The notes below the pieces were generated by a model, which did not search any database, was not told the origin of the DNA, and saw only the letters and a list, made by a program, of their open reading frames with translations. Positions 43,807-44,205 of a DNA stretch of 44,223 nt are shown here, one piece after another (within the stretch, counting starts at the first letter, position 1; each line of letters opens with the position of its first letter). The DNA comes from Escherichia phage EM1, in sequence record PQ571293, one strand, 5' to 3'. The position numbers and the translations under genes are program-made.

Positions 43807-43835
43807 AGTATACATTGCGAATAATGGGAAATCAA
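43807..43835 (-). promoter_or_regulatory. sigma70-like promoter on minus strand, TTGATT -35, 17 nt spacer, TATACT -10
   Basis: minus-strand reading TTGATTTCCCATTATTCGCAATGTATACT; first promoter of the minus-strand replication module. Confidence 0.55.
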
Positions 43836-43920
43836 ACATAATCGCACCTATTGACATTATGAAAATCTTCGTTTAAGGTGCTTCTATATCTTAGTTACTT
43901 TGATTCCTGTTCACCTTGTA

Positions 43921-43952
43921 AGAATGTTTAACCCGTGCGTCAAGCAAAGGGT
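43921..43952. repeat. inverted repeat GTTTAACCC (14 nt) GGGTTAAAC
   Basis: 9 bp perfect arms read directly in a gene-poor region. Confidence 0.6.
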
Positions 43953-44114
43953 TAAACACAGGCTTACTGAACATGAGAATTATCGTAACTTTCCTTCCTA
44001 AGTATCTCCGGTTGCCCTGGGCAAGCTCTATTCTCATCGGCAGCATATCTCTTAAGTATCTGATTTTCTTAAAGTGCCGTAGATTCGCAACCGTAAAAAT
44101 GTAACGATTATTGG

Positions 44115-44135
44115 GCAGGCTTAAGGCCTGCCCTC
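44115..44135. repeat. GC-rich hairpin GGGCAGG-CTTAAGG-CCTGCCC
   Basis: 7 bp perfect stem; related TTGCCC-T-GGGCAA palindrome about 90 nt upstream. Confidence 0.55.
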
Positions 44136-44205
44136 TAGTTACCAAGTAATAAGAATAAAGGCACAACCACGCCTGAAGAATCACAACGGCAACGTAACTA
44201 TTCTC

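Follow-up and report, generated by a model that had tools for sequence, protein, structure and literature searches.

The stretch of DNA analysed here (hereafter the window; 44,223 bp, Escherichia phage EM1, sequence record PQ571293) is the complete genome, closed as a circle, of a phage of the genus Kagunavirus (Guernseyvirinae), with 92–96% identity to the E. coli Kagunavirus phages ULINTec2, Bas73 and K1ind1. The subject of this study is the sole large gene-free stretch of this genome (positions 43,807 to 44,205), which we interpret as probably housing a unit for an early structured non-coding RNA. On its left flank, a leftward operon encodes a 56-amino-acid (aa) helix-turn-helix (HTH) protein of the HTH_17 type (ATG at 43774), a 77-aa protein and a 746-aa helicase–primase with an AAA_25 domain; the orthologous HTH gene is annotated in relatives with a length of 171 nucleotides (nt). 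The promoter of this operon, P_L, lies on the minus strand at 43807–43835 (TTGATT, 17 nt, TATACT) and was called by the consensus scan in the window and in relatives. Its sequence is kept in both Kagunavirus and Jerseyvirus, and the record of phage PVP-SE2 annotates a promoter there. On the right flank, the first rightward early gene begins with an ATG at window position 45. The HTH gene next to the locus was one of four early genes in a Kagunavirus RNA-seq study in which annotated genes only were scored (PMC12645636). A preliminary description, made from the letters of the window, had placed a structured non-coding region between divergent early promoters, adjoining the helicase–primase operon, and had read it as a candidate replication origin or packaging-related locus; the placement was borne out by the alignment, the promoter scan and the annotations of relatives.

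Homologous DNA was found in 446 phage records, among them approximately 100 E. coli phages (88–98% identity) and more than 300 Salmonella Jerseyviruses (71–80% identity). Annotations at the locus disagree: Bas73 carries one 321-nt open reading frame (ORF), SHAK7693 two fragments, K1ind1 nothing, and Kenya-K53 and S4lw a 147-nt ORF, and the majority of the Jerseyvirus records have no gene annotated here. The sole long ORF lies on the minus strand at 43891–44211 (106 aa, GTG start), and the records of some relatives list it as encoding a 'hypothetical protein'. Of 38 distinct relatives, about 7 have it intact, and in the remainder it is split, truncated or absent; three Jerseyviruses have no ORF of at least 30 aa on either strand. 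Its product matched no Pfam family at E ≤ 0.01, and its GTG start has no correctly spaced ribosome-binding site. That this ORF, or a small plus-strand ORF, is a real gene is extremely improbable in our assessment. The ORF is open over the entire region in the window and annotated in Bas73, and a three-codon frame (NTG-CCG-stop) is retained in 36 of 39 variants; however, every frame is disrupted by indels and module swaps. The three-codon frame, GTG-CCG-TAG at 44072–44080 in the window, occurs in variants with ATG, GTG or TTG starts and with all three stops. It was rejected as a start-Pro-stop mini-ORF, as neutral purine variation explains the pattern of its stop codons; because a TGG variant exists as well and no ribosome-binding site is present, the frame probably reflects conservation of a motif and not translation. 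Judged from the relatives, the 106-aa ORF is a chance frame and not a gene. No ORF is conserved and no conserved protein-coding gene was found across the relatives, and the non-coding status claimed in the preliminary description was upheld.

Two irregularities among the records were also recorded. The PVP-SE2 record leaves the first early gene (ATGCTTAAGAAGGGTCAG..., L020:1750 onward) unannotated, so that its gene-free stretch appears approximately 900 nt long. The record of SHAK7693 (L002) gives the lineage as Autographiviridae/Kayfunavirus, yet its locus is 95% identical to that of the window and its local gene order is alike.

A rightward promoter, P_nc, is proposed on the plus strand at 43851–43879, arranged back-to-back with P_L in the alignment. 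It consists of a −35 box TTGACA (43851–43856), a 17-nt spacer and a −10 box TAAGGT (43874–43879), with a predicted start near A43886. The sequence CACCTATTGACA is invariant in Kagunavirus and Jerseyvirus, and the −35 box TTGACA matches the consensus at six of six positions. The spacer is constant in length, at 17 nt, and variable in sequence. The −10 box reads TAAGGT in Kagunavirus, TAAGTT in Jerseyvirus, TAAAAT in K1H and TAAGCT in Schulenburg and Golestan, with T1, A2 and T6 always kept. The predicted non-coding transcript would span 43886–44143 on the plus strand, approximately 250–260 nt, its ends being placed from the promoter and a terminator-like hairpin. The plus strand of 43886–44145 folded with a minimum free energy (MFE) of −80.7 kcal/mol, compared with −56.2 ± 4.8 kcal/mol for 200 dinucleotide shuffles (z = −5.09). 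Equivalent transcripts of other lineages gave z values of −5.6, −5.0, −4.4, −2.8 and −2.5, with −0.8 in Schulenburg. The structured character proposed in the preliminary description is thus supported by folding beyond shuffles and by the recurrence of a rod-like hairpin in the variants.

This rod-like hairpin, domain 1, occupies 43893–43990 on the plus strand (approximately 100 nt, helices P1–P5). From the base upwards, it consists of P1 (AGUUAC/GUAACU), P2, P3, a conserved 4-nt CCUU bulge, P4, P5 and a variable apex. The architecture is shared by 34 of 34 distinct variants, each folded individually. The 9-bp inverted repeat that forms P5 had been reported at 43921–43952 and was located, as a 9–10-bp repeat TGTTTAACCC/GGGTTAAACA, at 43925–43934 and 43949–43958; the repeats and hairpins listed in the preliminary description were all present, at coordinates that differed by 2–8 nt. 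In a sequence-only alignment, 86% of the cells of the rod were paired, compared with 30–46% when the partners were slid by 1–3 columns. Ten pairs changed on both sides, with 91–100 double-change cells against 32–34 in shuffles. One pair in P4 is G-C in 22 sequences, A-U in 9 and U-A in 4. P5 occurs as GUUUAACCC/GGGUUAAAC, CGCUUAA/UUAAGCG, CCGCC/GGCGG and CCGCUUGA/UUAAGCGG, and the Jerseyviruses carry a different GC-rich stem. Domain 1 is approximately 50% identical between Kagunavirus and Jerseyvirus, with the rod retained. Structure-aware realignment with the covariance model R1 left P2 and P5 of the Jerseyviruses out of register, and the two genera were therefore also analysed separately. 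These results show that the rod hairpin is under structural selection and that its pairing is supported by covariation.

The strand that folds was read from the types of pairs. Domain 1 contains 31 G-U and 2 A-C wobble cells in the plus sense, and one P2 pair of Kagunavirus adds 20 G-U cells. Because the non-Watson–Crick cells are nearly all G-U in the plus sense, the plus strand is taken as the folding strand. Such a bias would not be expected from a double-stranded cruciform or from protein-binding palindromes.

The rod is followed by a CU-rich, G-poor linker, UUCCUUCCUAAGUAUCUCCGG (43991–44011, plus strand), which is unpaired in the MFE and consensus folds, is conserved across the genera and holds the first copy of the direct repeat TAAGTATCT. 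The two exact copies of this repeat lie at 43999–44007 and 44053–44061, and one further copy occurs genome-wide. At 44012–44024 (plus strand), the consensus fold contains a small hairpin, UUGCC-CUG-GGCAA, which corresponds to the palindrome TTGCCCTGGGCAA that had been placed at about 44020–44033. At its closing position, 18 sequences have U-A and 11 have U-G; the latter wobble can form in the plus sense only. The sequence TGGGCA(A/G)GCT, noted earlier as common to this element and the 3' hairpin, was found at 44018 and 44112. The central hairpin (44025–44088, plus strand; CGGCA...UGCCG with an inner UUAAG...CUUAA) was obtained as the RNAalifold consensus, carries the second TAAGTATCT copy in its loop and belongs to the most sequence-conserved block of the locus. 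Between Kagunavirus and Jerseyvirus, the segment 43996–44150 (linker, central hairpins and 3' hairpin) is 86–88% identical, and in the same comparison the genes reach 61% (helicase–primase), 68% (77-aa gene) and 82–85% (HTH gene). Nucleotide diversity is 0.09 at 44012–44100; domain 1 reaches 0.27, and third codon positions in the neighbouring genes reach 0.22–0.29. The predicted pairing of the central block holds in 98.6% of cells and is compatible with all sequences; the three variable positions are one-sided changes that keep G-U in the plus sense, and together with a singleton at a fourth pair these make up 33 cells. The sequence of the central block is shown to be under strong purifying selection, and because selection there acts on sequence, the block is a probable interaction surface. 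The motif TATCT occurs four times on the plus strand (43887, 44003, 44046 and 44057) and not at all on the minus strand, against an expectation of 0.25.

The 3' module (44101–44142, plus strand) is a proposed intrinsic terminator with an outer stem GUAAC/GUUAC, a GC-rich hairpin GGGCAGGC-UUAA-GCCUGCCC (44113–44133) and a U-rich tail. The arms of this hairpin, already noticed in the preliminary description, are GGGCAGGC at 44113–44120 and GCCTGCCC at 44126–44133. In relatives the tail reads TTTAGTTA, and a terminator-like call was made on the plus strand in Bas73. One pair of the 3' stem is compensatory, being C-G in 24 sequences and U-A in 4. Other lineages carry different modules at this place. 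In fEg-Eco06, K1H and L005, an unrelated GGGUGGGC/GCCCACCC stands in a longer stem followed by UUUU, and the scan makes no call on the fEg-Eco06 type. In L057, Schulenburg and Golestan, AGGCCCC/GGGGCCU or GGUGCC/GGCACC is followed by CGUUCGUUUCG, and the L057 hairpin is called by the scan. Several further features of this end of the locus were observed. A (CACT)n microsatellite of variable length lies just 5' of the 3' hairpin in Golestan (L062:1240-1290), Schulenburg (L061:1440-1460) and L057. In Jerseyviruses the 3' unit is present a second time, in diverged form (GTAACTGAAATGCCGAAAGATTC...CTTGCC-TTRC-GGCAAG; L020:1560-1700, L024:1330-1430), and in S4lw-type phages the first copy was lost via deletion between GTAWCTGA repeats.

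A conserved box, AGAATCACAACGGCAACGTAACTATTCTC (44176–44205, plus strand), stands directly 5' of the first early promoter in every lineage, even where the RNA modules differ. It does not occur 5' of the copy of this promoter at 1294, the one further copy that was read, and is a candidate binding site for a regulator. The first early promoter, called the junction promoter in the preliminary description, proved to be real: its −35 box TTGCAC (44206–44211) and the first part of its spacer lie at 44206–44223 on the plus strand, and its remainder and a conserved 5' untranslated region (5'UTR; TTATCGAAACGAGA) lie at 1–44, with the −10 box TACTAT at 5–10. A 29-nt promoter sequence, TTGCACACCCCAAYATAATAGGRTACTAT, occurs in four copies: at the junction (44206 to 10, plus strand), at 1294–1322 (plus strand), and at 12361–12389 and 21897–21925 (both minus strand). 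An identical 5'UTR box, TTATCGAAACGAGA, follows two of these copies (at 15 and 1327). The length of the promoter sequence exceeds that of an ordinary sigma-70 site, and it appears to define a class of promoter specific to the phage. At the circular junction, the window is short of one T relative to all relatives (ACATAA|AGGATACTAT versus ACATAATAGGATACTAT). The missing T cuts the early-promoter spacer from 17 to 16 nt and is probably an artefact of circularisation or assembly.

Comparison with further lineages indicated that the locus is built of exchangeable modules and occurs throughout the subfamily Guernseyvirinae. The 5' modules of Bas70, K1H, Schulenburg and Golestan are non-homologous to that of the window, and a search of these left modules with R1 gave nothing significant (E > 0.5). 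In all four lineages, a rightward promoter of the TTGAC(A/T) type is nevertheless present together with a stable hairpin and the short shared motifs (A/G)TATCT, ACTGAT and TGCCGTA(G/A), after which one of the 3' modules follows. The predicted transcripts of lineages with non-homologous 5' modules gave z values of −5.0, −2.8 and −0.8. Every non-homologous variant of the locus contains TATCT at least once on the plus strand. In Golestan (L062, NC_042084.1), the helicase–primase is approximately 31% identical to that of the window (helicase half) and the HTH protein is 86% identical, with gene order unchanged; by this comparison of sequences, the replication gene is swapped within the genus.

We consider the most plausible account, and a probable one, to be that the locus is a promoter-to-terminator unit for an early structured non-coding RNA of approximately 250–260 nt, made by the host sigma-70 polymerase. 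Polymerase would initiate at P_nc, near 43886. The transcript would fold into the 5' rod (43893–43990), a CU-rich single-stranded linker, the small hairpin and the central hairpin, and would end at the GC-rich hairpin (44113–44133) and its U-rich tail, just 5' of the early-gene promoter. We infer that transcription does take place and yields a separate, released RNA species. Its 5' rod may serve as a stabiliser of the RNA or as a platform for a protein, and the conserved unpaired segments (the CU-rich linker, the UAUCU motifs and the AAGUAUCUGAU...UGCCGUAGAU core) may offer a surface to a protein or nucleic-acid partner in the early phase. On this evidence the locus would represent a candidate phage RNA family that was previously unannotated.

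Several observations weigh against this account. Both ends of the transcript are predictions. The −10 box of P_nc matches the consensus at three of six positions, for which reason the promoter is not listed by the simple consensus scan and its call rests on comparative evidence. The tail of the 3' hairpin in the window, TCTAGTTA, has 4 T among 8 positions and falls below the threshold of the terminator scan. The central and 3' structures are nearly without covariation, with a covariation score equal to that of shuffles; the central block hardly varies, which accounts for the lack of covariation there, and the structure of the central part therefore stays a prediction. The comparison of MFE between strands was ambiguous: the plus strand was the more stable in 24 of 34 variants, and several Jerseyviruses were reversed and favoured the minus strand. 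Choice of the strand by folding energy alone was consequently dropped, and the pair-type counts were used instead. The best duplex of the CU-rich linker with an antisense target in the phage genome reached −29.2 kcal/mol, no better than the −23 to −29 kcal/mol of shuffled linkers, and no match to the locus was found in E. coli genomes. Moreover, one invariant copy of the motif GTAACT (44194) lies outside the predicted RNA, beside the −35 box of the early promoter, and suggests that the conservation is partly at the DNA level.

The weak tail and the absence of a terminator call in the window mean that read-through into the early genes is possible. Transcription from P_nc could then pass the weak hairpin, and the RNA would act in cis as a put-like antiterminator, an attenuator, an RNase III site or a stabiliser. 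The weakness of the U-tail (TCTAGTTA in the window, TTTAGTTA in relatives) agrees with such a leader, as does the start of the structured element 7 nt past the predicted transcription start. Antitermination would also have a target, as a strong intrinsic terminator lies behind the first cluster of early genes, near 1030–1060. However, the conserved box and a TTGCAC-type promoter come after the hairpin in every lineage, from which it follows that the early genes own a promoter, an independent and highly conserved one between the hairpin and the first gene. The three non-homologous 3' modules all keep a GC-rich hairpin, two of them with T-rich tails called by the scan, and the length and sequence conservation of the central block surpass the known needs of put and other leaders. 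We regard a cis-acting leader as quite unlikely.

The copy of GTAACT at 44194 belongs to a wider set. GTAACT/AGTTAC occurs four times in 350 nt (43893, 43985, 44137 and 44194), in addition to GTAAC at 44101; nowhere else in the genome is the motif clustered as densely, and relatives show no variation in it. The copies are of mixed orientation and are largely arms of two helices, P1 and the stem around the terminator. Because the motif builds both, alternative long-range pairings are possible. In Jerseyviruses, a perfect palindrome, GTAACTTcAAGTTAC, spans +4 to +18 of P_nc, over the RNA start. The simplest inference is that GTAACT and GTAACTTcAAGTTAC are candidate sites for the highly conserved HTH protein, and some of the conservation probably reflects a role of the DNA itself. 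In its pure form, this explanation would make the locus an operator cluster (GTAACT, TAAGTATCT) for an HTH regulator that controls P_L, P_nc and the first early promoter, with the hairpins as by-products. The invariance of the four copies, the one outside the predicted RNA, the Jerseyvirus palindrome and the 86% identity of the HTH protein even where the helicase is 31% identical all accord with it. Binding palindromes cannot, however, account for helices whose sequence changes freely while pairing is retained, and the one-strand wobble bias and the exchange of the 3' hairpin for unrelated hairpins are left unexplained. A purely DNA-level function is very unlikely in our judgement; for the invariant motifs only, operator sites may coexist with the proposed RNA.

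The reading of the locus as a replication origin or packaging site, put forward in the preliminary description, was not supported, and none of the observations bears on packaging. No iterons were found in the region beyond two-copy direct repeats of 8–13 nt, and no DnaA box (TTATCCACA, at most one mismatch) was present at 43300–44223, its genome-wide count equalling chance. The P4-type origin contains clustered type I iterons, TGTTCACC; this possibility was rejected, as the sequence occurs once in the region (43908) and three times in the genome against 1.5 expected, and is thus not enriched. The repeats behave as helices of a plus-sense single strand between a promoter and terminator-like hairpins. 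An analysis of cumulative GC skew, suggested as a check, did place a minimum at the junction, but this coincides with the switch from minus- to plus-strand gene orientation and is therefore uninformative.

An origin or primer function that depends on transcription deserves separate consideration. Divergent transcription from P_L and P_nc might unwind the AT-rich DNA between these promoters, or the P_nc transcript or the displaced plus-strand hairpin might be used by the RepA-like helicase–primase, a scheme modelled on ColE1 RNA II, the T7 primary origin, T4 oriF or the ssi sites of RSF1010. The locus adjoins the helicase–primase operon, and the record of phage Schulenburg notes an HHpred similarity of the helicase to RSF1010 RepA. 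GC content is 30–33% at 43780–43930, the skew minimum falls at the junction, and the GTAACT/AGTTAC cluster is the densest of the genome. The displaced non-template strand is identical in sequence to the RNA, so that covariation and strand asymmetry also fit such an origin. Opposed to this are the lack of iterons and DnaA boxes, the unenriched P4 iteron and the identity of the skew switch with the gene-orientation switch. In addition, the terminator-like hairpin is kept through module replacement, which suggests a released RNA and not a persistent hybrid, and the layout and core motifs are retained in Golestan-type phages with a helicase–primase of approximately 31% identity, which is unexpected for a helicase-specific site. 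The sequence features agree with such an origin but are not specific to it. Both forms of this explanation, unwinding by divergent transcription and use of the transcript or the displaced hairpin, appear unlikely.

The proposed RNA was also compared with known elements. The covariance models of Rfam 15, applied to the entire window, gave no match at the gathering score; the best sub-threshold hits reached 16–18 bits against thresholds of 50–70. A search for tRNA and tmRNA found none, and no paper on an RNA or an origin at the locus was found in the literature. Among plasmids, the sole match was a 44-kb 'plasmid' resembling a Kagunavirus genome. This entry, CP088689.1 (PLSDB; E. coli blood isolate; 44,086 bp, non-mobilizable), matches the HTH gene and the locus, and is probably a phage genome deposited as a plasmid.

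Small RNAs of temperate phages (lambda oop, P22 sar, P4 CI, P1/P7 C4 and N15 CA) are likewise short non-coding units, bounded by promoter and terminator, that the host polymerase transcribes in the early control region near replication or regulatory genes. They are 70–100 nt long and antisense to an overlapping or same-operon transcript, whereas the RNA proposed here is approximately 250 nt, with neither an annotated gene nor a predicted opposite-strand transcript overlapping it; it has no Rfam match, including to the C4 antisense RNA, and its host phages are virulent. The put element of HK022 is similar in that a structured RNA directly follows an early sigma-70 promoter, in a phage without a recognisable N-like protein and with terminators downstream. 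However, put lacks its own terminator and consists of two stem-loops in approximately 70 nt, whereas a 100-nt rod, a central block, a terminator-like hairpin and a separate promoter are found here.

ColE1 RNA II, the T7 primary origin (promoters 1.1A/B), the R-loops of T4 oriF/oriG and the ssi sites of RSF1010 oriV likewise combine promoters with a structured transcript or hairpin beside replication genes, and the likeness to RSF1010 extends to the helicase, which is RepA-like according to the note in the Schulenburg record. Unlike these transcript-dependent origins, the locus has no iterons or DnaA boxes, has hairpins supported on one strand only, a terminator-like 3' end and AT-rich DNA confined to the promoter block, and is kept despite the exchange of the helicase–primase (approximately 31% identity). 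The pRNA of phi29 resembles the proposed RNA as an early structured RNA of approximately 170–250 nt at the edge of the early region. To our knowledge, it is the only link between such an RNA and packaging. It belongs to protein-primed podoviruses and forms a three-way junction with intermolecular loop pairs, an architecture that was not seen at the locus, and no Rfam match was obtained. The probable terminase ORFs of the window, identified by reading the ORF list, lie at 7238–10003, and the locus is not adjacent to them.

Two features of the neighbouring leftward operon were noted. A strong terminator-like hairpin with a T-run lies on the plus strand at 43343–43368, between the minus-strand genes for the 77-aa protein and the helicase–primase. 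In the metagenomic relatives L012 and L014, an additional small minus-strand ORF is located between P_L and the HTH gene, approximately 140 nt upstream of the latter.

A wider reading of the proposed non-coding RNA, which we hold only tentatively and consider rather doubtful, is that it represents an undescribed, modular class of early RNA throughout Guernseyvirinae with a dedicated function, either the initiation or licensing of replication via the RepA-like helicase–primase, at an RNA-primed or R-loop origin of the phage, or the sequestration, as a decoy or sponge, of a host factor or of a defence system. Such an RNA would lie at a fixed position and would combine the conserved core AAGUAUCUGAU...UGCCGUAGAU with a 5' hairpin that varies and a 3' hairpin that can be exchanged; this arrangement, too, is a speculative proposal. 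If it holds true, an essential RNA gene would be absent from approximately 450 published annotations.

Kagunaviruses and Jerseyviruses rank among the most frequent phage isolates on E. coli and Salmonella; they find use in cocktails for phage therapy and biocontrol, and synthetic biology employs them as chassis. Recognition of the RNA unit would correct inconsistent annotations, in which the locus is either empty or occupied by discordant 'hypothetical proteins'. It would also call for caution in engineering, as a seemingly convenient 'gene-free' site may be risky for deletions or for the insertion of a payload. The covarying helix and the near-invariant single-stranded core provide handles for mutational analysis. 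Recognised as an RNA unit, the locus would also become an early element, regulatory or replicative, that is open to testing in a group of phages whose early biology is essentially unstudied.

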